Shown: positions 3,984 through 54,496, numbered from the stretch's first letter. The stretch: DNA of 64,000 nucleotides from a bacterium (GCA_006226965.1 SBGQ01000068.1:4445-68444); one strand, 5' to 3'. The notes: generated by a model from the sequence alone, not told the origin. Numbers and translations are program-made.

Positions 3984-5674
3984 TTGATTGGAATCAGTTA
4001 GCTGAGGAAGAAATTATAAGCCCGGTTTTAGTGCAAATGGCTCAAACTTCAAAAATTATAGAAGACCAAGTTGCCGTGTTTTTAGCTTTTAAGGCTTTAG
4101 AAAGTGGAAATACCGTTTTTTCTAAGAAAGATTATCCGCACTATTTACCGGCGGTTTCATGGGAGAAATCTTCATTAATTGGTTCGCCGACAGATGAAAA
4201 GCCAATTAAGAAATTAGATGAAACTCGATTTCAGATTCAGAGATTATGGGTACAAGAGCAAGGAATAAAGGCTTTTTTGAATCAAACATCGGATTTTATA
4301 TCTGGCATTGAGCCTGATGTACCTTTCATAAAACAGATTGTAGGTGAACATGATTCACTTTCTGTTCAGGCGAAAGCAATGCAGGCGATTTTGAATGAAC
4401 GAATCGTGATTTTAACAGGTGGTCCTGGAACAGGAAAAACATTTACTATTGTTCGATTGTTGGCATCGCTTATTCATCATTTCACATTAAATAAAAACTC
4501 GATTGCATTAACAGCGCCAACCGGAAAAGCCGCAGCTAGAATGTTGGAATCCATACATTCATCACTAGTAGATTTACCTGTTGATGAAGCCTTTAAAGCG
4601 CAATTTCCTAATGAGGCTTTTACTATCCATCGTTTACTAGGGATCACCAACAATGCACTTCAATCGACCTATAATAAAAAAAATCGGTTGCCATTTGATT
4701 GTGTGATTGTAGATGAAAGCTCCATGTTGGATGTGAACTTGTTTTATGCATTGACTCAAGCGCTAAAACCAAATACAAAACTCGTTTTGGTAGGAGATAG
4801 TGACCAATTGCCATCAGTTGAGGCCGGTTTTATATTAGCGGATTTATGTTCGTATGGTGATGATGTTCAGGTTGTATTATCTGATTCCAAAGGGCAAACA
4901 GATTTATTTACTTCGGAGAAACCGGATAATAAATGTGCAACGATAAAACGTATTCATTTATCGAAATCACACCGATTCAGTGAAAAAAGTTCTATTGGGA
5001 TACTTGCAAAAAAAGTAAATCAACAGGAAGCAGATACACTTTTAGAAACGTTTCAATTAGATGATTTAAACTGGATTTCGGTTAATAATATCGCTGAGAT
5101 GAATAAGGCTGTGAAACAATGGTATCAACAGCATCTGGAAAAATTACAATCCGCAAACTCTGAAAAAGAGTTGTTTTCTGTTTTAAGGGAGCAAATGATA
5201 ATTAGTGGTTTACGAGTTGGCTCTTGGGGAAGCGAAGGCATAAATCAATTGTTTTCGCGCGAATTTGAACGATTGGGCAAAGGCAGTAAACATGGTTTCC
5301 CGATAATAATTAACACAAACAGTTATTCTCATCAGTTGTTTAACTCAGATATCGGCGTTTATGTAGAAAAAGAATCCACGAATAAAATCGTATTTGAAGA
5401 ACGCTTAGGGGTTTATCGAAGATTTAATCCGGGAGTTATTCAAACTATTATAGATCCGGCATTTGCCATGACCGTGCATAAGTCTCAAGGTTCTGAGTAC
5501 GATCATATTATGCTCGTTTTGCCGGAAAAAGATGAAAACAGATTATTAAGTAAAGAGTTGATATATACAGCCATCACAAGAGCCAAAAAAACGTTCACAT
5601 TGGTTTCTAATAAAGATATTTTTGTAAAAGCTGTAAAGACGTTAAATAAAAGAGAAACAGGATTGAGAGCTTAA
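3980..5674 (+). CDS. recD: RecD, exodeoxyribonuclease V alpha chain (SF1 5'-3' helicase)
   Basis: 564 aa. Motifs: GGPGTGKTFT (Walker A), VIVDESSMLD, LVLVGDSDQLPSVEAG, AMTVHKSQGSEYD, YTAITRAKK. The start overlaps the recB stop (ATGA). Confidence 0.9.
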   Translation: MIDWNQLAEEEIISPVLVQMAQTSKIIEDQVAVFLAFKALESGNTVFSKKDYPHYLPAVSWEKSSLIGSPTDEKPIKKLDETRFQIQRLWVQEQGIKAFLNQTSDFISGIEPDVPFIKQIVGEHDSLSVQAKAMQAILNERIVILTGGPGTGKTFTIVRLLASLIHHFTLNKNSIALTAPTGKAAARMLESIHSSLVDLPVDEAFKAQFPNEAFTIHRLLGITNNALQSTYNKKNRLPFDCVIVDESSMLDVNLFYALTQALKPNTKLVLVGDSDQLPSVEAGFILADLCSYGDDVQVVLSDSKGQTDLFTSEKPDNKCATIKRIHLSKSHRFSEKSSIGILAKKVNQQEADTLLETFQLDDLNWISVNNIAEMNKAVKQWYQQHLEKLQSANSEKELFSVLREQMIISGLRVGSWGSEGINQLFSREFERLGKGSKHGFPIIINTNSYSHQLFNSDIGVYVEKESTNKIVFEERLGVYRRFNPGVIQTIIDPAFAMTVHKSQGSEYDHIMLVLPEKDENRLLSKELIYTAITRAKKTFTLVSNKDIFVKAVKTLNKRETGLRA

Positions 5675-11410: not shown

Positions 11411-13333
11411 TTAGCCGGTAATTAAGGTATTTAATTGTGCAACGTGTTCAATTAACAAATCAACTTCTGTAACAATTTCAAAAGATGTAGCCGATAATTC
11501 TTCAGCAGAAGCAGCATTTGATTGAATAGTTTGTTCGTTTTCTTGAACACCTCTTGAAATAGAATCAGTGGTTTGCATCTGCTCATTAGTGATATCTTTT
11601 AATTCGTTAATAAGCAGATTTAGTTTGTCAGTTTCTAGATTTATTTGCTTAAAACGAACTTCATAGTCGGCTAGTTTTATTTCACCTTCTTTAGCAATAG
11701 CCATTGAATTAGAAATGATTGTTTCGGTTTGTTTCGCCGCTTGAGTTGCGCGTAATGCTAAACTTCTAACTTCATCTGCAACCACAGCGAAACCTGCGCC
11801 AGCTTCACCGGCACGAGCTGCTTCAACAGCTGCATTTAATGCTAATAAATTAGTTTGAAAGGCAATTTCATCTATACTTTTTAGAATGGATTGCGATTCT
11901 TGAGCACCATTTTGCATTAAATTAAACGTTTGTTTTAATTCGCTTAATTTTTGAAAACCTGCCATAGCTGCGTCATGTAGATTATTCGAAATGGAATGAG
12001 CAGTAATTACAGATGCTGCATTTCTTTTAGAACCACTCGCAATTTCCTGTATTCGTAAAGAAATGGTATCTGCGGAAGAGGCCTGCTGAGCTGAGCTTGA
12101 AGCTAATTCTTCAGAGTTTTGTGATAATTGATAGGCAATAGTAGAGAATTGACTTATTGATGTATCAAATGATGTAACAGTGTCTCGTATTGGTGTTTCT
12201 ATAGATTGTACAACCCAATATGCTAATATTGGAATAATGATAATTATAATTCCACCGATAAGGAAAAAAAAGGAAATCATGGAATTTAGATTTGCCATCA
12301 TTTCGTCATAAGTGATTGTTGTAAGAATAATCCAGTTTATTCCTGGTAATGAAATAGAATCGAATGCAGATAAATATCTTTGGTTGTCGTTATCTGAATA
12401 AACTAATTCGCCGGTTTGTTGTGTTTGTGCAGTTTTAAAAATAATAGAGTTGGCAATATTCGATTTTAGTCTGTTTTTGAAGCTGTTTTCAACAGTTAGG
12501 TTTTTATCTAAAAAGCTATTTGAACGCAAAAAAGCATCGTTTCCTATGAGTATAGATTCCTCTGTAACACCTTGACCCGCGCGATTGTTCATGACAGTGT
12601 TGATTTTATTTAGAGGCATTTGATAAGCTAAAACGCCAATGCGTTTATTGTTATAAAAAACAGGAGAGGCGATAAAGGAAGCCGGTTGTCCGTTCGAAGG
12701 TTCATACGGCTTATAGTCAACCATTACCGATTCACCTTGTAAAGCCGAATTTGCTTTTTGGAATGCCGTAGCCAACCCAGAATTAGAGAATTGACCATCT
12801 AAAAAATTTGTTGCATAATCTGTTTCTTTAAAAACAGAGTACACTAGATTTCCATCTATATCAAATAGAAAGATATCGTAATACTCAAATAACTGTTGTC
12901 TGGCTAAGAAAAAGGGGTGGTATTTAGCATGATTGGTATTATATAAACTGTTGTCATTCGATGAAATAAGAAGTTGTTTTTCACCAATTGGATAGGGGTT
13001 ATTTTTTATATAGGTTGTCTGTAAATAGTGAGATACATTTTCTTTTTTATCTATAAAATCCCAAGCAGATTTAAAGTCTAATATGGCATTAATTGTCGTT
13101 TTATTGCTTGCAAGTGTTATTATATGTTTATCTATGGTATTGAAATAAGTAATTATCTGGTCTTTTTTTATTTGATTGAACGCTTGAAGTGTATTATAGG
13201 CTGAAGATATGATTTCAGTTTTTAGTTTTACAAAAATAATACTTAGAACGATTACCATTGGTATTAAGACAATGGAACTCGCAAAAGTAAATAATCTTGC
13301 TTTTAGGCTTAATGATTTCGTAGTTAAATTCAT
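11411..13333 (-). CDS. Methyl-accepting chemotaxis protein with a periplasmic Cache-like sensor
   Basis: 640 aa with two TM segments flanking a sensor of about 300 aa. The conserved signalling hairpin is [38 protein letters not shown]. Confidence 0.85.
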
Positions 13334-13377
13334 GATTTGATGATTCGGCTAAAGACAAAAAAAAGTTTATAAAAAAG

Positions 13378-13409
13378 AAACCCGGATTCTTTCACAAACC
13401 CGGGTTTTT
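13378..13409 (-). terminator. Rho-independent terminator after the second chemoreceptor gene
   Basis: AAACCCGG-14 nt-CCGGGTTT, with T-runs on both strands. Confidence 0.55.
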
Positions 13410-13435
13410 ATTTTGTATGATTTGGTAAACTGGTT

Positions 13436-14815
13436 CTAGTTCATAGAAACTATTGTGTTTAAAACACTTAAAGTTTCTTTTAAATGTTTAACTTGGCTTC
13501 TTAAATCCAATGAAACAGTATTAGTTTGTTCTGCTAATGCCGAGTTTTTCAGGGTTGTGTTTTCAATGTCCTGAATAGCATTTTTGAGTTCAAAAGCATT
13601 GGTACTTATAAAACTGAGTTCACTTTTGGTTTGAATAATACTTTTAGTTGCATCCTCAGAATCTGCGGCAACTTCGCTTAACTCGTTAAAGAAACTTTCA
13701 CTTTCATCTAAAATTTGTTTTGTACGTTTTGTTGTAAGTTCAAGTGAATCATTTGAGTTTTTTGCAGCAACTGATGTTTGAGTTGCTAATCTTCGAACTT
13801 CGTCAGCAACAACAGAGAAACCGGAACCTGCTGTTCCTGCTCTTGCGGCTTCAACTGAAGCATTGATAGATAAAATGTTCGTTTGAAAGGAGATAGCATC
13901 AATTTGTTTGGTTACATCTAAACTTTTATGAACAAAATGAGATATTTCTTGGAGTGATCTTCTCAGCATATCAACATTATCTGCTAATACCAATAAGGTG
14001 TCTTTGGTTTGAATCGTTTTATCATTTGATTCCTGAATTTCTTGAAAAGTTTTATCCAAAGTATTCGATAGTTCTATTAAAGATGCACTCATTTGTTGGA
14101 TATTTGCAGCCTGTCTTTGTGTTGATTCAGTTAAATCAAAACTACCTTTAGAAAGTTCACGACTATTTTTGTCTAACTCAAAAGAAATATCATTTATTTG
14201 AGAAATCATATGTTTAAAAAACACTTTAAACGGTCTGTAAAAGCTCGCATAGGTAATCGCAATTATGATGAGTACAAATACTGGAATCATATATTTGGCA
14301 AGTCCAAATAACATTAAAATTGCTCCCGACTTAACAGATAAAGCGTGGTTAAGAGCATAATTAGTGTCATAAAGCGCTGTTTTTGAAATCTTTAAAGCAG
14401 AATTATGAACATTCGATTCCTCATTTCGTAATTGTACTTTCAATTTATGTAGCTCATTTATTGAAGTTGAAACTTCTGCATTGATTTTCTGGGACTTTAA
14501 TTCATCGTTTTCGGTAATGAATTCATGTATATGTTTAAAATCTGAGATTAAACTGTCTAATAATTCTTGTTGAATTCGAATAAGATTTTGATTTTGTTGA
14601 TCTTGAATTAAAGAGTATTCGAATTGGTGAAAGCGTATTGTAGCATTATTTAGGACTGTATAATGAGAGTCTTGGTTCTTAATTACCGAACTCCCATAAA
14701 TGATGATAAGAAGAGTTGTAAAAGCAGCTATGCTAACAGCAGAAATAATTAATTTATAGGATAGACCTACATTGATTTTATTAGTTAAACGGGGTTGATT
14801 TTCCATAAAAGACAC
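13436..14815 (-). CDS. Methyl-accepting chemotaxis protein
   Basis: 459 aa with two TM segments. Signalling domain: [37 protein letters not shown]. Confidence 0.8.
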
Positions 14816-18203: not shown

Positions 18204-18902
18204 CTAATCTTTTCTTAACTGCAGATACTGCGGCCTGAATCGAATCTCAGAAATAACATTACCGGGTTCTGATTGTATTACCTGAATGGCAATGGATGCA
18301 ATAACTTCTGGATTAAGAGCAGCATACGGATTATCACTTGGTTTAAAACTAAGAGTGTCATAAAAGTGGGTTGCTGTGATATCGGGAATAAGCGTACACA
18401 CTTTTAGATCTTGTTTGCGGTAGTCTTCAAATAATCCGTTCATAAAATGGTATAAACCTGCTTTTGCCGCAGCATATGGACCACCCCAGCGACTTGTTGT
18501 TGTTCCGGCGTGTGAACCTAAAGCAATAATATTCCCTTTACTTGCAATCAAATCATGAATAAAATGTCTGGTTAACATCATCGGAATAGTGAGATGTATT
18601 TTTGTCAAGCGTTCAATATCCTCAATGCTGATATGTTCGATAGCTTTAAACAATCCAAAACCAGCACTGTGAATTAAAACATCAAGATGCTTACCCGTAT
18701 CTCGGCGAACCTGTGTAACCCATTGATTCATAAATCCCTTATCCAACAAATCACCTTCTTCAAAGTGTAGATTCGTATGCGAGAATTCACAGTTTTCAGG
18801 ATGTCTGCTAACCGAAAAAACCTTGAAATCCAGTTCTAATAACTTTTTTGTAATAGCTAATCCGATGCCGGAAGAAGCACCAGTAATAACGGCTGTTTTC
18901 AT
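18204..18902 (-). CDS. Short-chain dehydrogenase/reductase (SDR) family oxidoreductase
   Basis: The start at the ATG at 18902 gives MKTAVITGASSGIGLA (TGxxxGxG Rossmann motif). NSAG-like HSAG and the catalytic YAAAK are present. Confidence 0.85.
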   Translation of the reverse strand: MKTAVITGASSGIGLAITKKLLELDFKVFSVSRHPENCEFSHTNLHFEEGDLLDKGFMNQWVTQVRRDTGKHLDVLIHSAGFGLFKAIEHISIEDIERLTKIHLTIPMMLTRHFIHDLIASKGNIIALGSHAGTTTSRWGGPYAAAKAGLYHFMNGLFEDYRKQDLKVCTLIPDITATHFYDTLSFKPSDNPYAALNPEVIASIAIQVIQSEPGNVISEIRFRPQYLQLRKD

Positions 18903-19012
18903 GCTTGGGAATATAGAAAAAAGAGTATTTTTGTTGACCATTTCAAAAGGTTTTTTCTAAGCAAATCTAAGCTTTGAATCATCTGCATAATCTTTAGTTT
19001 TATTTCTTTTAT

Positions 19013-24630: not shown

Positions 24631-25620
24631 TCAAAAAATGAAATCCAGTTTCTTTGCCATCACTTCATCTGAAAAATAACTCTTCACCAAATCGTACATC
24701 GCAGAAACTGTTTCATCATGATAAGACAAAGCACCGTCTTTAATCACGTAGGAATCAAAAAGGAGAGATGTATCTTTTCGTTGCTGTTTCATTCGTTTTA
24801 AGAAAGCGTGATTCATGCGAAACGTACCGACTGAAATATCTTTTACTTTCTGTAAATCAATGGAATGAGAAAGATGTAGTAAAAATTCCTGATATACGGA
24901 TTCCCAGTTTGGAACGCGCAACATCGGATCAATACACAATCGAATCGGCCAACCGGCGTCCATTGCTGTTTGAATGGCCTTAAGCCTTGCTTGCAAGGAG
25001 GCGGTTTTCTTTTCGTGTAAATCGATAACAGATTGTGGCGAAAGTGACCATGCTAAAACGGTTCGTGAATTGGGTTTTAAACCTTTTATAGCAGATATAT
25101 TCGCCGATTTTGTACGCAACTCGATACTTAAACGAGGTTCTTGTTCTGTAAATTCAATCCACGGGCGCGCAAAGCCGAATAAGCCTTCAAAGGCCAATAA
25201 ATCGGTATCGTAAGAGAGGGCCAGATACATGTTTTCCTGAGTTTTATCCAACTCCTCAACTAAAGCCTTTCTAAAATCGTCCTGATTCACAAAAACAACG
25301 ACATGCGCAGAGGGAAATAAACCTTGCAGATAACAATAATCGCAGTCGTAAATGCAGTTGAGCATCACCGCATTATAATAAAAAGCTCCGCTTCCAAAAC
25401 TAGGTGTATAACCGCTCCCGGCGTACAGAAATGTATCTTTTCGTTCTGCTAAAATGAGCGCTTGATGTTCTTTTTGAAACCGCCAATCTTGTCCTGAACG
25501 GTTAAATACATCTTTGTAATGCTCTATGATGATACGCTCAGAATTCGGAAAGCGATCCAAAATCTGTTTGGTTTGATGGTGTTCTAAAACGGATTCTTCT
25601 ATGTAGATTCGAGAAAACAT
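24631..25620 (-). CDS. Spore-photoproduct-lyase-family radical SAM protein (SplB-like)
   Basis: 329 aa. The radical SAM cluster motif is C-IYD-C-DY-C-YLQG (compare CMGHCHYCYLQ of Bacillus SPL). The N-terminus IYIEESVLEHHQTKQILDRF parallels the SPL N-terminus. The gap to the upstream gene is 3 bp. Confidence 0.8.
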   Translation of the reverse strand: MFSRIYIEESVLEHHQTKQILDRFPNSERIIIEHYKDVFNRSGQDWRFQKEHQALILAERKDTFLYAGSGYTPSFGSGAFYYNAVMLNCIYDCDYCYLQGLFPSAHVVVFVNQDDFRKALVEELDKTQENMYLALSYDTDLLAFEGLFGFARPWIEFTEQEPRLSIELRTKSANISAIKGLKPNSRTVLAWSLSPQSVIDLHEKKTASLQARLKAIQTAMDAGWPIRLCIDPMLRVPNWESVYQEFLLHLSHSIDLQKVKDISVGTFRMNHAFLKRMKQQRKDTSLLFDSYVIKDGALSYHDETVSAMYDLVKSYFSDEVMAKKLDFIF

Positions 25621-25623
25621 GGC

Positions 25624-26436
25624 CTAGTTTATTAAGCGTTTAGAAAGGTTTTCAATAATTACATCCCGTTCAGATGGTTTACCGGAATACGTTGAAAAAT
25701 CGGGTTCTGGTAAACCTGACGTAGTTTTTCTGAGTAAATAAAACCGTGCAAAATTGTGAAGAGAACGTCGTTGAGTTAATGTGATGGGTATGTTTTGCTC
25801 TAATAAAACAAGCCAGTTTTCAATTTCTGTATCATGAGGATTACAAGTATTCCCCCAATTTTTTTGATTCAAAAAAGCATCAATTTCATTCAATTGAGAA
25901 GAAATTAACTCACTAATAAACTCTTTACCCAACCAAATTCCTTCCAGTTTATCAGAAACAATCTTTAAACACTCGATTTGATTTACGTCTAAAAACAAAC
26001 TCGCCGCTGTAAATAAACCGGCAGATTCCATATCAACAAGAGAAAATCGTTCGGACAATTGTTGGGCATCTGTGAGCGGTTCATCAACACATAAAATCCC
26101 CGTTTGTTGAAATCCTTTAATGGGTTCAGCTTCCGGGTAAAAACAGGCTTTATTTGATGCTTGTTTGATTTGATTGATGCGAAACAGGGAACCGTTTTTG
26201 TGAATGGCACTCCCGGCAATTCCGATATTTAACACGCCCTTTATATCAAAATCTGGCTGACTCAAAACAGCCGAAGTAACTGCACTCGCTTTGGTTACAC
26301 AGACTCCCGTTACAGCTAACAACAGCTCATTATTTCTATACAGCTGAATCCGTTTGAATCGTGCATCATGTTTCAATTTGAAATGGGTGAGAAGCGGTTG
26401 TGCTTCAGCTTGTAAGGCCGTAGTGATTAAAATCAT
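25624..26436 (-). CDS. Phosphorylase-superfamily (PNP/UDP, MTA/SAH-nucleosidase-like) protein with an extra C-terminal domain
   Basis: 270 aa. The N-terminus MILITTALQAEAQPL, GIAGS and the VDMESAG block are characteristic of nucleosidase/phosphorylase family 1. About 80 extra C-terminal residues have no recognised similarity. Confidence 0.6.
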   Translation of the reverse strand: MILITTALQAEAQPLLTHFKLKHDARFKRIQLYRNNELLLAVTGVCVTKASAVTSAVLSQPDFDIKGVLNIGIAGSAIHKNGSLFRINQIKQASNKACFYPEAEPIKGFQQTGILCVDEPLTDAQQLSERFSLVDMESAGLFTAASLFLDVNQIECLKIVSDKLEGIWLGKEFISELISSQLNEIDAFLNQKNWGNTCNPHDTEIENWLVLLEQNIPITLTQRRSLHNFARFYLLRKTTSGLPEPDFSTYSGKPSERDVIIENLSKRLIN

Positions 26437-26553
26437 GCCTCAAAAATAGAAATAAACTCTAATCGGTTCTGGGGAAATCGAAAAACCTCAACAGATGCAA
26501 GAAAAATAATCTACATACTAAAACAGTTTCTGATGGCTAAGCAAGGAAACGCA

Positions 26554-28020
26554 CTACATAATAGTCTTTAAAACATCTTTGTAATCTAAATCCGGATGGC
26601 TAAAGTTAACATCGGAGATTTGTTTGAACTCGGTATCAACATACGATTTCAGTTTTGGGGGCAAGACTAAGTCGCTATTTCTTAGATGCAAGGCTCTTAA
26701 TACCATAACCTTAAAAACTCTAATTACCCAATCAAAACGTTCGCCAAGTTCACGAGCATTATGTGCGGCATTAGCGCTCATACTTACAATATCTTGATTA
26801 TCTGCATTCGTAGGTATGCTACTTAAACTGTGATTTACAGCTCGCGTACGCATATCAGCCGTTAATGATGTTAATAACAATTGTAATCCTTGCAGACCAC
26901 TATTTAGCCCAACAGGAGCATCAGCAAGAAATGCAGGGAGTCCATTATTTAATTTGGCGTGTGTGATTCGGTTTACAATCCGTTCTAATAAAATGGAAAT
27001 ATGAGTTAATGCCTGTGCTAGTTGGTCGGCGGCTAAAGCTATATAGGTTCCCTGAAAGTTGGCTGCGTGTAAAATCAATTCCTCATCATGAAAAAATAAA
27101 GGGTTATCATCTACCGCATTCAATTCTGTGTTAAGTAATTGTTCTGCCTGAGATAATCGCTCAATAGCTGTTCCCATCCATAAAACAACGGAACGCGATG
27201 AATAGGGCGGTTGAGGTGTACCGTGTGATTCCTCCGGTTTTAACGGACTTAACCAATCACGCAGTTTTGCAGCAGTTGTGAGCGCTGACTCATGTGCTTT
27301 TACGGAATACACTAACTCTGATAGATGTTGGATGGAGTCGTTAAAAATAAAGTACTGCAATGCAATTAAAGGGAACACCTCGTCGTGCAAAATAGAAACG
27401 GTTTTCAAATAGGTTTCGACTGTTATTCCCAATGAATAACTCGTACCGTTTACAAGAGCCAAGCCTTCTTTTTCTTTAAGTTGATATACGGGCAAATCGC
27501 TGTAACTATTTAATTGCGAAGCTTTTGCAAGTTCATGTTCATTAATCCAAAAATCATCTTTGCCGACTAACATACGAGCCAATGAGGCTAACGGTACTAA
27601 GTCACCCGATGCACCCACAGAGCCAAATTGATAAAAAACCGGAGCGAAGCCAAGATTATATAATGAAATCATGTAGTTGATGAGTTCAAGACTTACGCCT
27701 GAACGGGCCTGACTCAAGGCATGAATTCGAATTAAGAAAATGAGTCTGGAAACAGAATAGGAAAGTTTGGGGCCTGTAGCGCCGCTTAATTGTTGGAGTA
27801 GATTTGTTTGATGCTGAAGGAGTTCTTCTTTTGGTATTGATTCGGATACAAGCGGGCCAAATCCTGTGTTAATGCCATAAATTGAGGCCTTATCTGTAAG
27901 TGATTTCTCAATAAATAACCTGTTTTGAATAATCTCATTCTTTTTCTTCGATGATAGTTTGATGGCAGGAATAGCATTAGAAAGTGAATGTAAGGATAGG
28001 CTATTGTCTAGTGAATACAT
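26554..28020 (-). CDS. MIO-dependent aromatic amino-acid/histidine ammonia-lyase family enzyme
   Basis: 488 aa. MIO-forming triad in GSVGASGDLVPLA. Also the YGINTGFG block and NGTS, QDIVSMS motifs of the HAL/PAL/TAL fold. Confidence 0.85.
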   Translation of the reverse strand: MYSLDNSLSLHSLSNAIPAIKLSSKKKNEIIQNRLFIEKSLTDKASIYGINTGFGPLVSESIPKEELLQHQTNLLQQLSGATGPKLSYSVSRLIFLIRIHALSQARSGVSLELINYMISLYNLGFAPVFYQFGSVGASGDLVPLASLARMLVGKDDFWINEHELAKASQLNSYSDLPVYQLKEKEGLALVNGTSYSLGITVETYLKTVSILHDEVFPLIALQYFIFNDSIQHLSELVYSVKAHESALTTAAKLRDWLSPLKPEESHGTPQPPYSSRSVVLWMGTAIERLSQAEQLLNTELNAVDDNPLFFHDEELILHAANFQGTYIALAADQLAQALTHISILLERIVNRITHAKLNNGLPAFLADAPVGLNSGLQGLQLLLTSLTADMRTRAVNHSLSSIPTNADNQDIVSMSANAAHNARELGERFDWVIRVFKVMVLRALHLRNSDLVLPPKLKSYVDTEFKQISDVNFSHPDLDYKDVLKTIM

Positions 28021-28335: not shown

Positions 28336-30027
28336 TTACTGATTACGTTTCGAAATAATCTGTTGCAATAAAGCCGTATTTATAGTCACATCAGCTTTTT
28401 TATACTGTTCAGGTAAACAATACTTATGAGTTAGTGCGGATAAACTTGAGTTGGTGTCATTTATAAGTCGATCACCAAGAGCTTCTTCTTTAATAGGAAT
28501 AATCTTTCTGGAAACAGGAGCTATCAACATATACAGGGAACCTTCTTTATAAGGGCCGGCAAAAACCTGATTTTTCTGAGGTTCATCCATTGGCAGGTAA
28601 TGCTCGGGTTTACCTTCAGTCTCTGAAACTTTGGACGTTGTGGTTCTGTTTTCAAGCGTATAATCATCTTTAAATAAAGGGATTATACTCGTGAAATAAC
28701 GTTCCTTTTGCCATAATTTAATTAGTTCAGCCACTTTCGATGAATCAGAAAACAAATAAGCATGGTACGTAGAAGAGACAGAATCAGGGTAACGCTGTTC
28801 TTTATAGGACTCATAAAAATCATGTGCGAGTTTTTGTTTATCTAATAACGGTGTCTGATATCGAAGATGAGCATAATACAGAGTTTCAAAACGTGCATCG
28901 TCTTGTTCTTTAACGACTTCCTGATTCTTCATATACCCATTTTTCTTGGCTAAATCTGTAATTAAGATGTTCTTCAACCAATAGGAAAGTGCCTGTTGAG
29001 GTTCATATTCAATCAACTCACTTGGAATGGTATGAACGGCTTGCAAAAATTGCTCAACCGGAAGCGACTTGCCGTTCAATACAGCTATTTCTGATGCAGC
29101 AGTATCTGTTTTTGCTATTCTGCCTGCTGCTTTTCGTAAAAGAACTTTATGAGCTTCAATCGGTTGTTTTTTTATCACTTGTTGAAAAGAAGTAATAACA
29201 GCTTGGAATAGGGCATCACGAATAACTACTTGTTGTTCGGCATATAACGAATCAATAAAGAACTGTGTCGATTCTTCCAACTTACGACGGAATACATCCA
29301 GTAATAGTTGTTCTCTGTTATTTTTATACTGCTCAACATGTACTCGTTCTGTTTCTAAAATGTCGGTTGCTTTGAATATATGCCAACCTTTTGTGGACTT
29401 TACAGGTTTAGAATAACTTCCTTTCTTCAGGTTAAACGCAGTGATTTCTGCACTTAAATCAATCATTCCGTATCGAACCCAACCTAATTTATAAGAGGTG
29501 TCAGAAGCGGCAGAACTGTACAGGCTCAGGGATTGTTTTGCCACTTTTTCAAAAGATGCGCCTTTTTGAAGCTCTTTATAATAAGCGTCAATCTGAGTTT
29601 GAGTAGGTGCAAAAATTTGTTCCAATCTCATTGCCGTGTATATGCGTTTAAATGCTTGTCTAATTTCATTTTCAACAGGTTGTTGAACTCTTTCATCCAT
29701 AAAATGACGCATATACACTTGTCTTAGGGTGTTTTCTGTTTTTTGGATGATATCAGATTGAACTTCGAATAAGGTATCTAATCCCAATTCTTGAGCTTTT
29801 TGTGCTATGATTTTACGCTCTAATTCGTATTCGGCGAACTTTGCTCTTAATTCAGGAGTATCTTTTCGGCGTTCTTTTAACACATAATTGATATAAGACT
29901 GAGTAAACTTATCGGCTGTAAGGGAATATCCATTCCACGAAGCCACCGCCTCATTGTTTTTTTTCTTTTCAGAGCAACTAAATAGTATGGGGATTAGAAC
30001 AAGAAGAAGTAATAAACGAAGTTTCAT
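28336..30027 (-). CDS. Peptidyl-prolyl cis-trans isomerase, parvulin/SurA-like lipoprotein
   Basis: 563 aa. Lipobox LFSC|SEKK. The PpiC-type rotamase core is around FEKVAKQSLS...GWVRYG...SKPVKSTKGWHIFKATD. Confidence 0.75.
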   Translation of the reverse strand: MKLRLLLLLVLIPILFSCSEKKKNNEAVASWNGYSLTADKFTQSYINYVLKERRKDTPELRAKFAEYELERKIIAQKAQELGLDTLFEVQSDIIQKTENTLRQVYMRHFMDERVQQPVENEIRQAFKRIYTAMRLEQIFAPTQTQIDAYYKELQKGASFEKVAKQSLSLYSSAASDTSYKLGWVRYGMIDLSAEITAFNLKKGSYSKPVKSTKGWHIFKATDILETERVHVEQYKNNREQLLLDVFRRKLEESTQFFIDSLYAEQQVVIRDALFQAVITSFQQVIKKQPIEAHKVLLRKAAGRIAKTDTAASEIAVLNGKSLPVEQFLQAVHTIPSELIEYEPQQALSYWLKNILITDLAKKNGYMKNQEVVKEQDDARFETLYYAHLRYQTPLLDKQKLAHDFYESYKEQRYPDSVSSTYHAYLFSDSSKVAELIKLWQKERYFTSIIPLFKDDYTLENRTTTSKVSETEGKPEHYLPMDEPQKNQVFAGPYKEGSLYMLIAPVSRKIIPIKEEALGDRLINDTNSSLSALTHKYCLPEQYKKADVTINTALLQQIISKRNQ

Positions 30028-30574: not shown

Positions 30575-33500
30575 ATGAAATTTACAAGAAACTTTACCAA
30601 AGCAGAGTGGAAAACCCCGTACGATGGGCTCCGCTTCGAAACCCGTAAATCAGAAATCAAAAACCCTGACGGTTCTCGTGTATTCTTTTTAGATAACGTA
30701 ATTATCCCTGATTCTTGGTCACAAGTTGCTACTGATATTATTGCACAAAAGTATTTCAGAAAAGCAGGCGTTCCTGCTAAACTCAAATCTGTATCAGAAA
30801 AAGGTGTACCAAAATGGTTGCAGGCAAAAGAAGCTGATACCAAAGCATTAGGTGAATTACCGGAAAAAGAACGATTCTCAGGTGAACATGATTCCCGCCA
30901 GGTATTTAGCCGTTTAGCAGGCAACTGGACGTATTGGGGATGGAAATACGGTTATTTTGATACAGAAGACGATGCAAAAATCTTCTATGATGAAATGTGT
31001 TATATGCTCGCTACACAAATGGCAGCACCAAACTCTCCGCAATGGTTTAATACAGGATTAAACTGGGCTTACGGCATTAACGGCCCGGCTCAAGGTCACT
31101 ATTACGTTGACGGAAAAACAGGAGAGTTGAAGAAATCGGAGGATGCATACACACATCCTCAACCTCACGCTTGTTTTATTCAGGGTATTTCTGATGACCT
31201 CGTGAACGAAGGCGGTATCATGGATTTATGGGTTAGAGAAGCCCGCTTGTTCAAATATGGCTCCGGAACAGGTACAAACTTCTCCGACATTCGTGGTGCA
31301 GAAGAACCGTTAAGCGGCGGCGGACGTTCATCCGGTTTAATGAGTTTCTTAAAAATCGGTGATCGTGCAGCGGGTGCTATTAAATCCGGCGGTACAACTC
31401 GCCGCGCTGCTAAAATGGTTACCCTCGATTTAGACCACCCTGATATTGAAGAGTATATCAACTGGAAAGTTAAAGAAGAGCAAAAAGTTGCGGCTTTAGT
31501 GGCCGGCTCAAAAACCACTGAAAAACATCTCAAAAAAATCATTTCACTTTGCCACACTCCGGTAAACGTTGAAGGGCAGATGTTGAACGGTGCTGTATCT
31601 CGCGATCCGCTTAAAAACAAAGATTTAGCAAAAGCTATCCGCAAAGCTCGTGTTGAAAACGTTCCTGCTAACTACATTGAGCGTGTTATTCAATTGGCAT
31701 CACAAGGTGTTAAAGACATCGAATTCGAAATTTATGATACCGACTGGAATTCCGAAGCATATGCAACGGTTAGCGGTCAGAATTCGAACAACTCAGTTCG
31801 TGTGCCCAATGCGTTTATGCAAGCTGTTAAAGAAAACGGCGATTGGAATCTCTACTGGCGTATCGAAAAGAAAAAAGCTGAGTTAGAAGGTCGCGCACCA
31901 AAGGCATCAAAAACATTAAAAGCACAAGAATTGTGGGATCAGATTGCGTATGCAGCTTGGGCTTCTGCCGATCCGGGAACTCAATATCACGATACCATCA
32001 ACGAATGGCATACTTGTCCGGCTGACGGCCCGATTAAAGCTTCGAATCCGTGTTCTGAATACATGTTCTTAGACAACACCGCTTGTAACTTAGCTTCATT
32101 AAACCTTATTAAGTTTTATGATACCAAAGCGGCTCAGTTTAAAGTTGCTGATTACCAATATGCCACTCGTTTGTGGACAGTAGTACTCGAAATTTCTGTA
32201 TTGATGGCACAGTTCCCGTCAAAAGAAATCGCTGAGTTGTCTTACAAATTCCGCACTCTCGGCCTTGGTTTTGCAAACATCGGTACTTTATTGATGGTGC
32301 AGGGTATTGCTTACGACTCTCCTGAGGCTCGTGCGATTACAGGTGCACTTACTTCTATCATGCACATGACATCCTATGCAACAAGTGCTGAAATGGCAAA
32401 AGAATTAGGCACGTTCCCGGGATTTGAGAAAAACCGTGACCACATGTTACGTGTTATTCGCAACCACAGAAGAGCAGCCTACAACGTTCCTAACGATCAA
32501 TACGAAGGATTAACTGTAAAACCTGTTGGTATCGACCCAAATTACTGTCCAAGTTATCTCTTAGAAGCTGCACGCGCTGATTCTGACCGTGCTCTTGAAA
32601 TGGGTGAGCAATACGGATATCGTAACGCTCAGGTAACGGTTATTGCACCGACAGGAACTATCGGACTTGTAATGGATTGTGATACAACCGGTATCGAACC
32701 TGATTTTGCATTGGTGAAATTCAAAAAATTAGCAGGTGGCGGTTACTTCAAAATCATCAACCAAAGTGTTCCACACGCTTTAAAGAGATTAGGTTATTCT
32801 GATAAAGAAGCTGATGCGATTGTGAAATACGCAAAAGGTTACGGTTCTTTGATTGGTGCTCCGGCTGTAACTCACGAACAATTACGTGAAAAAGGATTCA
32901 CAAACAAAGAAATCGAAGCCTTAGAACAAGCCTTACCAACGGCATTTGATATCAAATTTGCGTTTAACCAATGGACATTAGGCGAAGATTTCTGCAAAAA
33001 TGTTCTTGGAATTAAAGACGAGCAATTAGCTGACTACACCTTCGATATGCTTTCTTTCTTAGGTTTCAGTAAAACTGATGTGGAAAAAGCGAACGATTAT
33101 GTTTGCGGAACCATGACGGTTGAAGGCGCTCCATACTTAAAAGAAGAGCATTTACCGGTATTTGATTGCGCGAATAAGTGCGGAAAAATCGGAACACGTT
33201 TTATCTCTCCTGAAGGTCATATTTTGATGATGGCAGCATCTCAGCCATTTATCTCAGGTGCGATTTCAAAAACGATTAACTTACCAAACGAAGCTACTAT
33301 CGAAGACATTAAACATGCGTATATGTTGTCTTGGGAAGTAGGTACAAAAGCAAACGCTTTATATCGCGACGGTTCTAAATTATCTCAGCCTTTAAACACG
33401 ATGGCTGATGTAATGGAAGAAATCATGCACGATGATGAAGAAGAACAAGTTCAGATTCAAAAAGCGCAAGACCATGTGGTTCAAACCGCTGAACGTATTA

Positions 33501-34192
33501 TTCACAAATATGTAGCTCATCGTAAACGCCTTCCGAACAGAAGAGGCGGTTATACTCAGAAATCAAAAATTGGCGGACAAAGTGTCTATCTGAGAACAGG
33601 TGAGTACGAAAACGGTCAGATTGGTGAAATCTTTATTGATATGCACCGTGAAGGCGCTGCGTTCAGAAGCTTGATGAACTGTTTTGCGATTGCCATTTCT
33701 TTAGGTTTACAGCATGGCGTACCTCTCGAAGAGTTTGTTGATGCGTTTGTATTTACAAAATTTGAGCCATCGGGACCTGTGTTTGGTAATCCGCACATCA
33801 AAATGAGTACATCAATTATTGATTATGTATTCCGTGAGTTAGCCGTTACCTATTTGGGTCGCCACGATTTAGCTCATGTTGATGCGGATATGATTGAAAC
33901 CAGAACCTTGCGTCCGGAGCCGGCTTGCGAAGTTGAAGGAGTTGAACATCAACACATGATTGAAAAAACTCATACTCCTGTTGCAACTGCTCCTGCTCCT
34001 GTAAAAGTAGCAGAAGAACACGTTCACGCAACAGCTACGGTAAGCGTCGGCAAAACTGAAACCGCTTATGAAAAAGCAAAACAACTCGGTTATACCGGCG
34101 ATGTGTGCAGCGATTGCGGTAGCATGACGATGGTTCGTAACGGTACTTGTTTAAAATGTATCACTTGCGGCAGCACTAGCGGCTGTTCGTAA
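30575..34192 (+). CDS. nrdJ: Class II adenosylcobalamin-dependent ribonucleotide reductase
   Basis: 1205 aa. Active-site block [22 protein letters not shown]. Other blocks: [10 protein letters not shown] and [25 protein letters not shown]-terminal Cys-rich tail: [27 protein letters not shown]. Confidence 0.92.
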
Positions 34193-42296: not shown

Positions 42297-42869
42297 ATGG
42301 AAAACTTATTATCAGAAATACGAGCTTGCCGTACATGTGAAGCTCATCTTATACATGGTGTTAACCCGATACTTGCAGCTTCATCTGAAAGTAAGATTGC
42401 TGTAATTGGTCAAGCGCCCGGACGAATTGTTCATCAATCCGGTAAACCTTGGGATGATGCAAGTGGTAAACGATTACGCAATTGGTTAGGTGTCACAGAG
42501 CTTGAGTTTTATAATCCGGCTTTATTTGCTTTAATTCCTATGGGCTTTTGCTATCCGGGGGAAGGTAAATCAGGTGATTTGCCACCTAGAAAAGAATGTG
42601 CGCCGCAGTGGCATTCTGTGCTGTTTAAATCAATGCCCGCAATCAAAATGATACTGCTTATAGGGAATTATGCTCAGTCGTATTATCTCAATGAAGCGGG
42701 CAAAATGCCACTTACCGAAATTGTAAAATCATATACGTTGTTTGGTGATATGTACTTCCCATTACCGCATCCATCACCTAGAAATAACAGTTGGCTTAAA
42801 AAGAACGAGTGGTTTTCCTTGGAAGTCTTACCTGCATTAAAACTGTCCGTTAAAGAGTGTTTAAAGTAA
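42297..42869 (+). CDS. Uracil-DNA glycosylase superfamily protein
   Basis: 190 aa. Motif A-like GQAPG and motif B-like HPSPRN. N-terminal CRTCEAH. Confidence 0.75.
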   Translation: MENLLSEIRACRTCEAHLIHGVNPILAASSESKIAVIGQAPGRIVHQSGKPWDDASGKRLRNWLGVTELEFYNPALFALIPMGFCYPGEGKSGDLPPRKECAPQWHSVLFKSMPAIKMILLIGNYAQSYYLNEAGKMPLTEIVKSYTLFGDMYFPLPHPSPRNNSWLKKNEWFSLEVLPALKLSVKECLK

Positions 42870-43387: not shown

Positions 43388-46300
43388 TTATTTGATTAAT
43401 GTCATTTGTTTTGTTATCACCTTGCTACCAGCAGATAAGCGGTAGAAGTACACACCTGAAGCTAGATTTTGTGCATTAAAGGTAACATTGTATCTACCTG
43501 CTGATTTAGTTTCATTCATCAGTATGGAGATTCTACGTCCTAAGATATCGTACACTTCTAAGCGAACATGAGTTTGCTGTGGAACTCCGAAACGAATGGT
43601 TGTTGATGGGTTAAATGGGTTAGGGAAACTTTGATTTAACTCAACTTCGGTTGGGAGTTGTTCGCCTTTTTCAACTGATGTTGCAATTGGGTTTACTTTA
43701 AGCATTAATACAGGAGCATCTGTAGTTGATGCGATTGACAACCCGGCATTTGGACCTTTTTTACTAGATACAGATTGTTTAGCGACAACATTTGAACGGA
43801 ATGTAATCTGGTTGTTATCCTTTAGTGTGTACATATTACCTGTTTCTACTTCAACTAATGTTGCTTCGAAACCTTCAGGTAATAAAGTCGGATCCCAAGT
43901 TAAATTGAATTCACCGGTCACCGTAGCATCTAAATAAATAGGATAACTGAAAGACTCTTCGGTTAGCGCAGGTAAGTTGTTAATCTTTACAGCCTGGTCA
44001 CTTACTTTCATATACATATTTGCATAAGTGTTATTCAATGGCCATAAGTAATAAGCATCTTTTCCATCAATAGCATATTTACCGTTTTCAGAAAAGCTGA
44101 GTCCAAATTTAGAAGACAAACCAGATTCAACCTGATTTAAAGTAAACATGAATTTTGGAGTAGATTGCTTTTCATTCTGATTAGGACGTGCTTTCCATTC
44201 TTCTCCGCCGCCGCCGCCGCCGCTTCCGGCATCGATAATGGTTGTTCCATCGTAAGTATAATAATCACTAATAATGAAATCATCCTGGAAACCCGGTTCT
44301 AAAATTCTTAAGAACATGGATTGGTAAGGTGTTAACGTTCCCCAGTCTGACTCAACCCAAGCGTTAGTACTTGGATCCCAAACGTAAACGTATTCGTTAA
44401 CAACAGCTTGCCATTCATCAAATTCGTCATAATAACTCATTTGATCATCCATTTCATAAAGAATGTCTCCGGCATCTACACCAAAACCGAATGGATTACC
44501 AACAAGTACCCAGCCTTCATTCCCGTTTAAAGTGCCGCTTTCGTCAACATCAACGTTTTTTAAGGTAATGGTTGCTTCTGTACCGAAAGTTGTGCCGCTG
44601 TAGTTAAATGTTTTTGGCCAACCACCATCAACTGGAGCTTGTTCATCCGTTGGATTGTCATCGGCAAACATATAGGCTAAAAGACCTTTTCCAGCTGCTA
44701 ATGTTGTTGAATTCAAATCCGTTGTAATGGTTTCCCATTGAGCGGTTTCTTCATTAAACGTAAACAAATTGGCATCACCAGCAGGAGCGTCTGAATTTGC
44801 TGCTCCTTGAGTCCAAACTGAGTCTAAGAAAGTTCCCAATGGACTTTGAAATGGATTCGAAAGCATTTGCCATTCGTTCTCATCTGCCGTTCCTACGAAC
44901 TCAGGGTTCATATCTATAACAGCGAAGTTTACAGTAATACTTGCATTACCTTTTGAAGCTGCAAAGGTAATTGTAATTTGGTCAATTCCGGCTTCATATG
45001 GCCAGTATTCTAATACATTTGTTGATGGGTTAAACGTATAACCATAAACATCTTCACCTTCTTGGTTACTTCCGCCGCTATAAATCCGATCACCGCTATT
45101 ATCATAAGGTTCTAAGTATAACTCACCGGAAAAGTTATTATCGTTTACCGTTAATATTAAGGTTGAGTCTTCGTAACCTTCTGCAAAAGGGAAGATGGAG
45201 TTATCTAAAATTATTGGTTCACTCTCATTGGCATAATAGACATTAACATTTATGGTAGTGTCACTTACACCGCTCAATAGATAGAAAGGTTCTCCGCTTG
45301 TAACAACAAATTGGCTAAACGAAGTTATTCCGTTAAATACAACTTGACCCGATGTATTTTCTGCACTAATACCGGAAGCAGCTAAGGTCCAGCTACCTAC
45401 AGAAGTAGAGCTTCTTTTATATAACTTAAGCAAACTAGGATCGGCTAACTCCTCAGCTGAAAATGCATCGGCACCAAGAGTTAGAGTAAGGTTGGCGCTA
45501 AAAGTGCCCGGATCTCCAAAAATGTCGATAATAAAATAACGATCGGCAACGGAGAAAGAGTAACCTGCCGGCATATTTGTCGGAACAGTTGCTACTTCCA
45601 ATACTTGTACATCTACTGCACTGTCAAAGTCTTCTGCAAGTGTTAAGGTGACATTACCTAAGGCTGTCGAGCCTGTTGTTACTGCAGATGCTGAACTGAT
45701 AGTGCCATTTCCAAACGGTACATCTGATTCAACATACTCATAGCCATTGATGTTCATAAACAAACTATTGATTTTGTCATATCTATTGATACCAAAACCA
45801 GCGTCTTCTTCACCAGTAACTGGCTGTGCAAACTGCCAGTAATGTTCTAGATTTGCCGGAAAACCAGTTGGAGGGACATACATGGTAGCACGGATATCAG
45901 CTGCTGATCGAGCAACACTCCAATAGCGTATTTCATCGATAGCACCTGTATAGTATTTATCCTCGTTCCAGTTTACACCAATGTACCATGGTGTATTGGT
46001 AACAGTTGCCGTAGTTATAGCGTCAGAATCTTCTAATTCTCCATTTACATAGAGTTTTAAATTGTCACCTGATGTACCAGTTAAAGCAATGTGATACCAA
46101 GCGTTTAAAGCAGCTGTTGTAGTTCCTTGGAGTTCTACACGTGTGCCGCCGCCGTTTTCATGCCCCGCATAAAATTTATTATCAGCACCTAAGCCCAATA
46201 AAATAGCTTCTTCACCATAAATAAGAAAAACTTGGTCAGTATTAATTACTGAAGGTTTAACCCAAAGTTCAATTGTAAATGGAGAATTAACGGTTGTCAT

Positions 46301-48235: not shown

Positions 48236-48243
48236 TGTCGTGT

Positions 48244-48609: not shown

Positions 48610-48720
48610 ACCAACAATTAAAAATTTCTATTTATCTGGTCGTAATTTCTAAGTAAGAAGTCCAGATTTCAATAGGAAGGAGTACTCATTTTTATAGGTA
48701 CTTGTACCCAGATCGGATAT

Positions 48721-49377: not shown

Positions 49378-49379
49378 AC

Positions 49380-52358: not shown

Positions 52359-52452
52359 TTAGTTTGTTTTTGTGATAATACTTAATTGACCAGAAAGTTT
52401 AAATGGAAAAGACGTTTACAAACTAAAGTTCCCGCCGATTTTCGTTCTATCG

Positions 52453-52484
52453 CAAAAAAAAAGCCTTCAAAAATGAAGGCTTTT
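52453..52484 (-). terminator. Rho-independent terminator after tRNA-Leu
   Basis: GCCTTCA-aaaa-TGAAGGC. On the minus strand it is followed by a run of 9 T. Confidence 0.7.
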
Positions 52485-52494
52485 AACTTACCGG

Positions 52495-53244: not shown

Positions 53245-53271
53245 TTTATTTTCGACAACTTTTTTCAATTT

Positions 53272-54491: not shown

Positions 54492-54496
54492 TAAAA

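Follow-up and report, generated by a model that had tools for sequence, protein, structure and literature searches.

Two of the three adjacent minus-strand genes investigated here belong to a widespread, uncharacterised operon with the canonical order MTAN-like nucleosidase, SPL-fold radical SAM enzyme and SDR, which is conserved in over ten bacterial phyla. The third gene, encoding a MIO lyase, is a chance neighbour of this pair, and the region joins two unrelated synteny blocks. We are highly confident that the module consists of the nucleosidase-like, SPL-like and SDR genes, with the lyase outside it. By analogy with known systems, we infer, at a probability of roughly 0.4, that the module may encode a small-molecule pathway acting on a SAM-derived 5'-substituted adenosine. 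No publication describing a nucleosidase/SPL-like/SDR operon was found in the literature searched, which was incomplete and could miss one.

The window (the whole stretch of DNA analysed, 64 kb) encodes a MIO-dependent aromatic amino acid ammonia-lyase/aminomutase family protein (26554–28020, 488 aa; PF00221, ASG motif), an MTAN-fold nucleosidase-like protein (25624–26436, 270 aa; PF01048, Foldseek), whose gene opens the conserved module, and an SPL-fold radical SAM enzyme (24631–25620, 329 aa; PF20903), whose gene comes second. The original prediction had described three co-oriented minus-strand ORFs separated by gaps of 117 and 3 nt, and re-reading of the ORFs and gaps gave the same layout, with a minus-strand spacer at 26437–26553 between the lyase and nucleosidase-like genes and the three nucleotides between the nucleosidase-like stop and the SPL-like start read directly from the sequence as TAG-GCC-ATG. 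The family labels were upheld by Pfam for all three proteins and by AlphaFold and Foldseek for the nucleosidase-like and SPL-like proteins, while all three scored far under every NCBIfam equivalog cut-off. Of the 42 large ORFs in the window, all but four short ones of 102–121 aa were scanned with Pfam and NCBIfam, and none of these 38 proved to be a hut, polyketide, aryl-polyene, men or mqn gene, in agreement with the earlier statement that hutU, hutI, hutG, polyketide and aryl-polyene genes are not nearby, and no hpn genes were found near the trio. The same scans located a T9SS sorting domain at 43388–48235. PADLOC defence-system models gave zero matches for the four proteins tested (E ≤ 0.01).

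In 78 of 81 genome loci, the SPL-like gene immediately follows a co-oriented nucleosidase-like gene. The loci come from 12 named taxonomic groups: Leptospira (including L. interrogans and L. borgpetersenii), Bacteroidota, Balneolales, Gemmatimonadota, Verrucomicrobiota, Lentisphaeria, Latescibacterota, Bdellovibrionota, Vulcanimicrobiota, Bacillota, one Burkholderiales and one Sulfurimonadaceae. The junction between the two genes was usually abutting or overlapping in these genome loci, and in 62 of the 78 the nucleosidase stop codon lay 1–7 nt ahead of the start of SPL homology. A reciprocal search from the nucleosidase side revealed an SPL-like gene directly downstream in 53 of 68 metagenome loci and within 4 kb in four more. 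These head-to-tail arrangements bear out the previously proposed coupling of a nucleosidase-like gene to a radical SAM gene. The metagenome search also turned up orphan nucleosidase-like genes that lack any SPL-like partner. The SPL-like family comprises at least 580 relatives in species-representative genomes. Besides the SDR, no other gene family recurred across groups beside the pair, and no DNA-repair genes were recurrent near the pair loci.

The gene-neighbourhood check did not bear out the trio as one unit, an outcome that the original prediction had itself named as refuting its idea. The ±8 kb around the SPL-like gene in 81 genome loci and the ±4 kb around the nucleosidase-like gene in 80 metagenome loci were all free of MIO lyase genes, and adjacency of lyase and pair was seen only on the window's own contig when compared against these 161 loci. 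The closest relative genome (GCA_964541325.1) carries all three genes, each on a contig of its own. The pair itself is split in the closest relatives, indicating that its physical coupling is not obligatory. Given that the trio is not a unit, the idea of a photoprotection/photorepair module, which rested on the trio as a cluster, falls with it.

The original prediction took the lyase as third partner and overlooked the usual third member, an SDR encoded directly after, and translationally coupled to, the SPL-like gene (−46 to +26 nt) in 45 of 81 loci from nine named groups and absent from the operon in ∼45% of loci. In the window, an SDR gene (18204–18941, minus strand, 245 aa) lies 5.7 kb downstream of the SPL-like gene. 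Compared with the 45 SDRs encoded directly after SPL-like genes, its product shows 36–40% identity, with E-values as low as 2e-59, while an unrelated SDR from those loci matched it with just E 7e-9. The product also shares 54% identity with an SDR encoded ∼600 bp from the SPL-like gene in a relative (L084). It is a homologue of the same subfamily, and probably a displaced orthologue, of the module SDR.

The lyase (PF00221, E 2.3e-107) carries the motif 'GSVGASGDL' with the MIO-forming Ala-Ser-Gly, and shares this ASG, the catalytic Tyr loop, an Asn and Tyr-x-x-Arg with RsTAL (2o6y), SgcC4 (2qve) and HutH. However, it scored under all equivalog cut-offs (305 bits vs. 539 for hutH and 274 vs. 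700 for FlxA) and lacks a hut or flexirubin context; no hut genes were detected beside lyase homologues in the neighbourhoods examined. While the substrate-selectivity switch is His-Leu in TAL, Phe-Leu in PAL and Ser-His in HAL, it is Gln-Leu in this lyase and across most of its clade, which is small (∼34 clusters) and also differs from HAL, TAL, PAL and the aminomutases in clade-specific pocket changes. In the window, the lyase gene is preceded by a gene encoding a SurA/PrsA-like peptidyl-prolyl isomerase (PPIase) with rotamase domains (28336–30027, minus strand, 563 aa). This PPIase is 47% identical over 562 aa to the product of the gene directly upstream of the lyase homologue in L086; in the closest relative genome, the lyase is located behind the same upstream PPIase, on a contig apart from the pair. 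The PPIase and the unusual MIO lyase form a synteny block of their own, unconnected with the nucleosidase/SPL-like block, and the spacer at 26437–26553 is the junction of the two. In this spacer we found no Rfam match (E ≤ 5) and no terminator-like site, and its folding was no better than that of shuffled sequence (z −0.12). One weak promoter-like match (26585–26558) straddles the lyase stop codon.

The nucleosidase-like protein had a weak match to PF01048 (28 bits), but its AlphaFold model (pLDDT 89) matched MTAN/aminofutalosine nucleosidase structures (Foldseek E 8e-13 to 5cce), with H. pylori MTAN/aminofutalosine nucleosidase, CT263 and futalosine hydrolase as best matches. Its invariant residues E11, M136-E137 and S161-D162 align with MTAN Glu12, Met173-Glu174 and Ser196-Asp197, and MTAN-type Glu/Glu/Asp residues serve in hydrolysis of the N-ribosidic bond of 5'-substituted adenosines. 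While the fold and the catalytic Glu/Met-Glu/Ser-Asp are thus the same as in MTAN, aminofutalosine nucleosidase, futalosine hydrolase MqnB and Chlamydia CT263, identity to this group is 15–23%, and scores were 16–36 bits against cut-offs of 125–213 (35.8 vs. 124.7 for the futalosine hydrolase model fut_nucase; 16.1 vs. 169 for the MtnN model PRK05584). Among NCBIfam models, futalosine hydrolase came closest to each of the 47 members sampled from the family, which numbers 2172 clusters at E ≤ 1e-30, and all fell far under its cut-off. In further contrast to the MTAN/MqnB group, the protein has an additional helical C-terminal domain of ∼100 residues (approximately residues 170–270) with its own conserved motif, and its genomic partner is an SPL-fold enzyme instead of Mqn genes.

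The SPL-like protein matched PF20903 at 76 bits and carries the cluster motif CX3CX2C as 'CIYDCDYC' (C89/C93/C96). Its AlphaFold model (pLDDT 92) shares the whole-protein fold of G. thermodenitrificans SplB (4fhc; Foldseek TM 0.83, E 4.5e-21) at 19–20% identity. Common to both are CX3CX2C followed by Y-L-Q, a Tyr on either side of the third Cys (Y95 and Y97, conserved in the SPL-like family) and an 'R-T-K' strand. However, Y137, a Tyr invariant in 67 family members ('SYDTD'), aligns with SPL Cys140, the conserved H-atom donor in G. thermodenitrificans, equivalent to Cys141 in B. subtilis. The region of the basic/aromatic SPL β-hairpin, which inserts into DNA, has a 7-residue deletion; its putative counterpart here reads 'YVIKDGALSY' and lacks the Arg/Lys/Tyr-rich SPL sequence. 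The family is approximately neutral in charge, with a median pI of 7.1 vs. 8.9 for the aligned G. thermodenitrificans SPL fragment. Scores against TIGR04070, the SPL equivalog (93.8 bits vs. 400), and TIGR03886 (64 vs. 437.55) were far below the cut-offs. Also in contrast to SplB, the gene is paired with a nucleosidase-like gene, and most of its carriers are not spore formers. Canonical SPL was rejected as an identity for this protein on the equivalog score, the replacement of Cys140 by Tyr, the shortened hairpin and the pI. We agree with the original prediction in leaving the SPL substrate open, and we think it probable that it is a small molecule and not DNA.

If the module acts on a 5'-substituted adenosine, the radical SAM enzyme would cleave SAM and leave an adenosyl-containing product. 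Most economically, the 5'-deoxyadenosyl radical would add to an unsaturated carbon of some common metabolite, and Tyr137 would quench the radical formed on the substrate. The nucleosidase would then strip adenine from the adenosyl adduct, and reduction by the SDR could follow, at the ribosyl carbonyl thereby exposed or at a different keto group. This specific route of adenosylation, deadenylation and reduction is put forward tentatively. The same logic of adenosylation followed by adenine removal, with a radical SAM gene linked to a PNP/MTAN-superfamily nucleosidase gene, operates in the futalosine route to menaquinone, where MqnE pairs with MqnB or MTAN, and in hopanoid side chain synthesis by HpnH and HpnG. 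HpnH is a radical SAM adenosylating enzyme followed by the PNP-family nucleosidase HpnG, which together lead from adenosylhopane to ribosylhopane, with reduction to bacteriohopanetetrol downstream and MqnE documented as an adenosylating model (PMC13459092). A later reduction step, as in the hopanoid case, is plausible here too. However, the radical SAM enzyme of the module has the SPL fold and is non-homologous to MqnE and HpnH beyond the shared radical SAM core (Foldseek E ∼2e-3 and TM 0.36–0.39 to MqnE structures; no MqnE or HpnH model match in NCBIfam), no mqn or hpn genes are near the pair, and adenosylation is proposed here by analogy. To our knowledge, the sole characterised member of the SPL fold abstracts hydrogen and does not add to an olefin, which counts against adenosylation. 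Two cluster-adjacent tyrosines help regenerate SAM in SPL; if SAM were also regenerated here, where Y95 and Y97 are kept, the nucleosidase would be left without an adenosyl product. The lack of an SDR in many loci and the splitting of the pair in the closest relatives also count against the pathway.

Alternatively, the SPL-like enzyme could perform ordinary H-abstraction on some substrate, with the nucleosidase only removing inhibitory 5'-deoxyadenosine, as suggested earlier, and the SDR possibly disposing of 5-deoxyribose. The conserved MTAN-type catalytic residues and the tight coupling of the genes are consistent with such by-product clearance, and MTAN enzymes hydrolyse 5'-deoxyadenosine. 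However, dozens of radical SAM enzymes per bacterium share one housekeeping nucleosidase or phosphorylase, and a private nucleosidase with its own C-terminal domain, dedicated to a single family across 12 or more named groups, would be unusual. Two of the three operon genes would then handle waste alone, the strict one-to-one coupling and the SDR would be left unexplained, and the orphan nucleosidase-like genes do not fit; we consider this explanation rather unlikely. Genuine DNA repair, in which the enzyme would reverse spore photoproduct or a related dihydropyrimidine cross-link in non-sporulators, for example after desiccation or UV, is improbable. The full-length SPL fold, the radical SAM motif and both retained tyrosines would agree with it, and other SplB homologues in proteobacteria, of a subfamily different from the family studied here, are predicted SOS genes (PMC3323433). 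On the other hand, the low identity and equivalog score, the replaced H-donor Cys, the shorter, apparently non-basic counterpart of the DNA-probing hairpin and the near-neutral charge all argue against this function, as does the lack of recurrent DNA-repair genes in pair loci. Pairing with a nucleosidase and an SDR would not be expected for direct-reversal repair, and the SPL-like family is also present in Bacillota, which normally already carry canonical SplB.

We also considered a lineage-specific trio, in which the radical SAM enzyme would use an α,β-unsaturated acid made by the MIO lyase, either as olefin acceptor or as substrate. The genes share a strand across a 117-nt gap with no terminator detected, all three are present, although dispersed, in the closest relative genome, and an acrylate-type product would be chemically plausible as a radical acceptor. 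However, the adjacency is unique to the window contig, and the conserved partner of the lyase is the PPIase. Given that the lyase clade is tiny while the pair is found in at least 580 species genomes and the nucleosidase family exceeds 2000 clusters, the pair functions without the lyase, and this explanation is very improbable. Least likely of all is an analogue of queuosine salvage, with the nucleosidase freeing queuine from queuosine (the QueK role) and the radical SAM enzyme converting queuine to preQ1 (the QueL role). QueK and QueL constitute a known queuine salvage pathway with the same logic of nucleosidase and radical SAM 'lyase' (PMC11130926, PMC11477304). However, Rfam searches of the window and eight diverse loci detected no preQ1 riboswitch, and neither a Q transporter nor tgt/que genes were recurrent near the pair. 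QueK is a member of the unrelated IU-nucleoside-hydrolase family, C. difficile QueL (Q186P0) has its catalogue entry under IPR006638 and not the SPL family, and an MTAN-type Asp protonating purine N7 would be ill suited to a 7-deazapurine.

Under our preferred reading of a small-molecule pathway, it is possible, if doubtful, that the SPL fold was recruited as a third, independently evolved C-adenosylating radical SAM class, or as a lyase on an adenosine-derived adduct, which together with the MTAN-like nucleosidase and the SDR builds or dismantles a ribose-derived C5 unit on a common metabolite. If true, the module would represent a new pathway of wide distribution and the SPL family would gain a new type of reaction, with carriers of the module including many Bacteroidota, Gemmatimonadota, Verrucomicrobiota, some Bacillota and Leptospira, the last including pathogenic species among the operon carriers.

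The three co-oriented minus-strand genes lie where the original prediction placed them, with intergenic spacers verified by direct sequence reading as 117 and 3 nt, the shorter junction being TAG-GCC-ATG, and the family assignments of all three proteins were upheld by Pfam, motifs, and AlphaFold models. The MIO lyase (26554-28020, minus strand; 488 aa) matched PF00221 at E 2e-107 and carried the MIO-forming motif GSVGASGDL, the nucleosidase-like protein (25624-26436, minus strand; 270 aa) matched PF01048 weakly, and the radical SAM protein resembling spore photoproduct lyase (SPL-like; 24631-25620, minus strand; 329 aa) matched PF20903 and had CIYDCDYC as its CX3CX2C motif. None of the three reached an NCBIfam equivalog cut-off. 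The reported lack of hut, polyketide, and aryl-polyene genes nearby also holds, as 38 of the window's 42 large ORFs, all but four of 102-121 aa, were scanned against Pfam and NCBIfam without yielding any of these or a men or mqn gene.

The coupling of the nucleosidase-like and SPL-like genes is real, and broader than could be seen from the window. ORF clustering of 81 genome loci, comprising 80 from species-representative genomes obtained with the SPL-like profile and one from Leptospira, yielded only three families recurring across groups: the SPL-like reference gene (81/81), the nucleosidase-like gene (78/81), located on the same strand immediately upstream, and an SDR of ~235 aa (45/81, in 9 named groups), located immediately downstream and mostly overlapping the SPL-like stop codon by 4-10 nt. 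The nucleosidase stop codon was 1-7 nt ahead of the SPL homology start in 62 of the 78 loci. A reciprocal sample comprised 80 metagenome loci extending 4 kb to either side of a nucleosidase-like gene. In 68 of these the sequence reached far enough downstream; 53 had an SPL-like gene immediately downstream, and 4 further ones had it within 4 kb. A profile search retrieved at least 580 SPL-like relatives in species-representative genomes, and carriers of the module, i.e., the pair usually accompanied by the SDR, included saprophytic and pathogenic Leptospira, Bacteroidota, Balneolales, Gemmatimonadota, Verrucomicrobiota, Lentisphaeria, Latescibacterota, Bdellovibrionota, Vulcanimicrobiota, Bacillota, one member of the Burkholderiales, and one of the Sulfurimonadaceae.

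Other recurrent neighbors in the 81 loci were generic (ABC-F ATPases and response regulators), and where a pair was split, the genes found between or next to its members were unrelated (ABC-F, GGDEF, TauE-like, gpsA, and rsmI). A TauE/SafE-like membrane protein was encoded between the two genes in metagenome loci L143 (4439-5209) and L160 (4734-5546). Orphan nucleosidase-like genes in three loci (L100, L108, and L116; about 2994-4849) directly abutted an upstream gpsA, encoding glycerol-3-phosphate dehydrogenase, and lacked an SPL-like gene within 4 kb. The top 150 nucleosidase-family representatives contained no gene fusion, which would have proved coupling, and no preQ1 or other riboswitch was found upstream of the operon in the window or in 8 diverse loci. 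A defense system was rejected given that PADLOC returned no match.

In the window, an SDR of the same subfamily is encoded ~5.7 kb from the pair (18204-18941, minus strand), separated from it by unrelated genes for a TPR protein, a cNMP-binding protein, an acetyltransferase, and a SASA esterase. It was 36-40% identical to all 45 operon SDRs (E values down to 2e-59, whereas an unrelated SDR from those loci scored 7e-9) and 54% identical to the SDR beside the SPL-like gene in relative L084; judging by these similarities, it is the probable orthologue of the translationally coupled operon SDR. As to specific function, only generic SDR matches were obtained. In the closest relatives, a gene encoding a secreted DUF2914 protein (L004, 24-494; L085, 902-1306) or an OsmC-like gene (L084, 5015-5455) precedes the SPL-like gene in place of the nucleosidase-like gene, so that in this clade the operon is no longer intact. 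The nucleosidase-like gene of relative L089 has a SpoIIE, MFS, M16-peptidase, and FG-GAP T9SS-protein neighborhood, which resembles window positions 43388-56650 (FG-GAP T9SS protein, 43388-48235; MFS, 53301-54491; SpoIIE, 54497-56650) and suggests that a genome rearrangement moved the pair in either the window lineage or that of L089.

The lyase stands outside this module. The original prediction had offered, as a speculative idea, a photoprotection/photorepair module made up of the trio and called for a search for its co-occurrence in other genomes; no MIO lyase was encoded within 8 kb of the SPL-like gene in any of the 81 genome loci, or within 4 kb of the nucleosidase-like gene in any of the 80 metagenome loci. 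In the closest relative genome, Chitinophagales MAG GCA_964541325.1, the trio genes are spread over three contigs: the SPL-like gene (L004; product 74% identical to the window protein) is preceded by the DUF2914 gene, the nucleosidase-like gene (L089; 54%) by M16 peptidases, and the lyase gene (L086; 63%) has directly upstream a gene for a 563-aa PPIase, 47% identical to that encoded at window 28336-30027. The trio genes were likewise dispersed in metagenome SRR24079459, and scattered in the surroundings of four relatives of the lyase and three of the SPL-like or nucleosidase-like protein. We therefore reject the trio as a conserved unit, leaving the photoprotection reading unsupported. Given that no lyase occurs near the pair elsewhere and that the PPIase neighbor is kept in L086, the lyase is a member of a PPIase-lyase synteny block that abuts the pair by chance in the window genome. 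The window is an example of how little three co-oriented, closely spaced genes in a single genome say about common function.

Within the 117-nt spacer, neither an Rfam match nor a terminator-like site was detected, and folding was no better than that of shuffled sequence, so that a regulatory RNA or terminator was rejected; one weak promoter-like match near the spacer straddled the lyase stop codon. Read-through transcription from the lyase into the pair is possible, with no hint of shared function. The lyase clade is small and metagenome-only, with ~34 clusters at ≥43% identity followed by a sharp fall to 37%. Its motif NLLQQLS places Gln-Leu at the substrate-selectivity switch, in contrast to His-Leu in TAL, Phe-Leu in PAL, and Ser-His in HAL, and further conserved pocket changes were QPPYSSRS, HAANFQGTY, and NADNQD; the observation covers the window lyase and loci L086, L087, and L088. 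In L088, the lyase homologue (48%) lies between a Methyltransf_3 (catechol-type) O-methyltransferase and ApbE.

SPL (SplB) is regarded as a spore-specific DNA repair enzyme and is, to our knowledge, the sole characterized enzyme of its fold. The AlphaFold model of the SPL-like protein (pLDDT 92) superposed on SPL over its full length with a TM score of 0.83 at 19-20% identity, the next radical SAM structure being far behind (E 2e-5). The family retains the cysteines of the cluster motif, together with Y95 and Y97 on either side of the third of them (equivalent to SPL Y96 and Y98), but the H-atom donor Cys140 of SPL is replaced by an invariant Tyr137 (SYDTD), 7 residues are missing from the basic hairpin region, and the family is about neutral (median pI 7.1; window protein 6.1), whereas the aligned part of Geobacillus thermodenitrificans SPL has a pI of 8.9. 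In equivalog score and H-donor residue, the SPL-like enzyme departs from what defines SplB.

The nucleosidase-like protein was also modeled confidently (pLDDT 89), with an additional five-helix C-terminal domain, and its best structural matches were Helicobacter pylori MTAN/aminofutalosine nucleosidase, Chlamydia CT263, and futalosine hydrolase (E ~1e-12). The nearest NCBIfam model was futalosine hydrolase in 47/47 sampled members, far under its cut-off. The family comprises 2172 clusters (50% identity, E ≤ 1e-30), all of ~265-290 aa, with invariant E11, M136-E137, S161-D162, and a G72/G75 loop; in profile-to-PDB alignments, these residues align with the MTAN motifs vEMEaaA and RAvSDsa, which supply the water-activating Glu, the ribose-binding Glu, and the purine-N7-protonating Asp. 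Because the catalytic residues align with these motifs, we infer that the protein is an active hydrolase of 5'-substituted adenosine.

The fixed coupling of a radical SAM enzyme to an adenine-releasing hydrolase suggests that SAM is consumed and that an adenosyl product is passed to the hydrolase. MqnE, paired with MqnB or MTAN, is a radical SAM enzyme adding the 5'-deoxyadenosyl radical to an olefin alongside a PNP/MTAN-superfamily nucleosidase. Similarly, HpnH performs radical adenosylation of an olefin, with HpnG as the PNP/MTAN-superfamily nucleosidase, and the ribosyl product is then turned into a polyol (PMC13459092), pointing to a possible role for the SDR. Given these precedents, we favor, at a probability of roughly one in three, a route in which the radical SAM enzyme would adenosylate a common acceptor metabolite, the adduct radical being quenched by Tyr137 as H-donor, after which the nucleosidase would strip adenine from the adenosyl product and the SDR would reduce what results. 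The likeness is one of analogy, as the module is a member of neither system: its radical SAM enzyme has the SPL fold, and MqnE matched the SPL-like protein structurally only at TM 0.36-0.39. Mqn genes occur in Spirochaetes, some Bacteroidetes, Gemmatimonadetes, and some Firmicutes (PMC3914697), and the taxon overlap of the pair with the futalosine pathway in several shared phyla is suggestive; no mqn-like family recurred beside the pair across groups in the 81 loci.

Dedicated removal of 5'-deoxyadenosine by the nucleosidase, as originally predicted, is chemically sound and a possible account, though a tentative one, which leaves unexplained why a single enzyme family should have its own nucleosidase and why an SDR accompanies it. 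True repair of spore photoproduct or another DNA lesion is unlikely in view of the replacement of Cys by Tyr, the shorter hairpin, the near-neutral charge, and the partner genes, and a lineage-specific use of the lyase product is less likely still. An analogue of queuosine salvage, with the pair in QueK/QueL roles, seems the most improbable of these: QueL may be SPL-like, but InterPro lists it under another entry and family, and neither a preQ1 riboswitch nor Q genes were found, so that we set this option aside as unsupported, not disproved. The remaining probability falls to unanticipated chemistry, e.g., cleavage of an adenosine-derived adduct.

Elsewhere in the window, two methyl-accepting chemotaxis proteins alongside T9SS-sorted proteins (11411-14815 and 43388-48235, minus strand), the sorting domain bearing out the predicted T9SS trait, point to a motile FCB-group lineage (Balneolales-like) and not typical Bacteroidia. 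At 360-5674 (plus strand), two large helicase genes resemble an AddAB/RecBCD-type pair: the first encodes a UvrD-like protein (1207 aa) that includes a PD-(D/E)XK nuclease domain, and the second an AAA_19/AAA_30 helicase (564 aa). A class II (B12-dependent) ribonucleotide reductase with a TSCPD domain (1205 aa; 30575-34192, plus strand) is divergent from the PPIase-lyase block; no cobalamin riboswitch was detected. A UDG-superfamily glycosylase is encoded at 42297-42869 (plus strand), and tRNA-Leu(CAA) (52493-52576, minus strand) is the sole RNA gene of the window.

Databases label the SPL-like proteins 'DNA photolyase' or 'SPL family radical SAM protein' and their partners 'hypothetical protein/nucleoside phosphorylase', and no description of the operon was found in the literature searched. 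Among non-sporulating bacteria, pathogenic Leptospira included, thousands of proteins annotated as 'DNA photolyase' or 'SPL family' fall in the SPL-like family analyzed here, and these annotations are probably wrong. The module is a testable lead on this large, probably mis-annotated family, its chemistry being proposed by analogy: with an MTAN-like nucleosidase as fixed partner and, in most cases, an SDR, a vaguely annotated protein becomes part of a putative three-enzyme pathway that can be tested, and the module may supply a new case of radical adenosylation followed by adenine removal, the logic of menaquinone and hopanoid biosynthesis.
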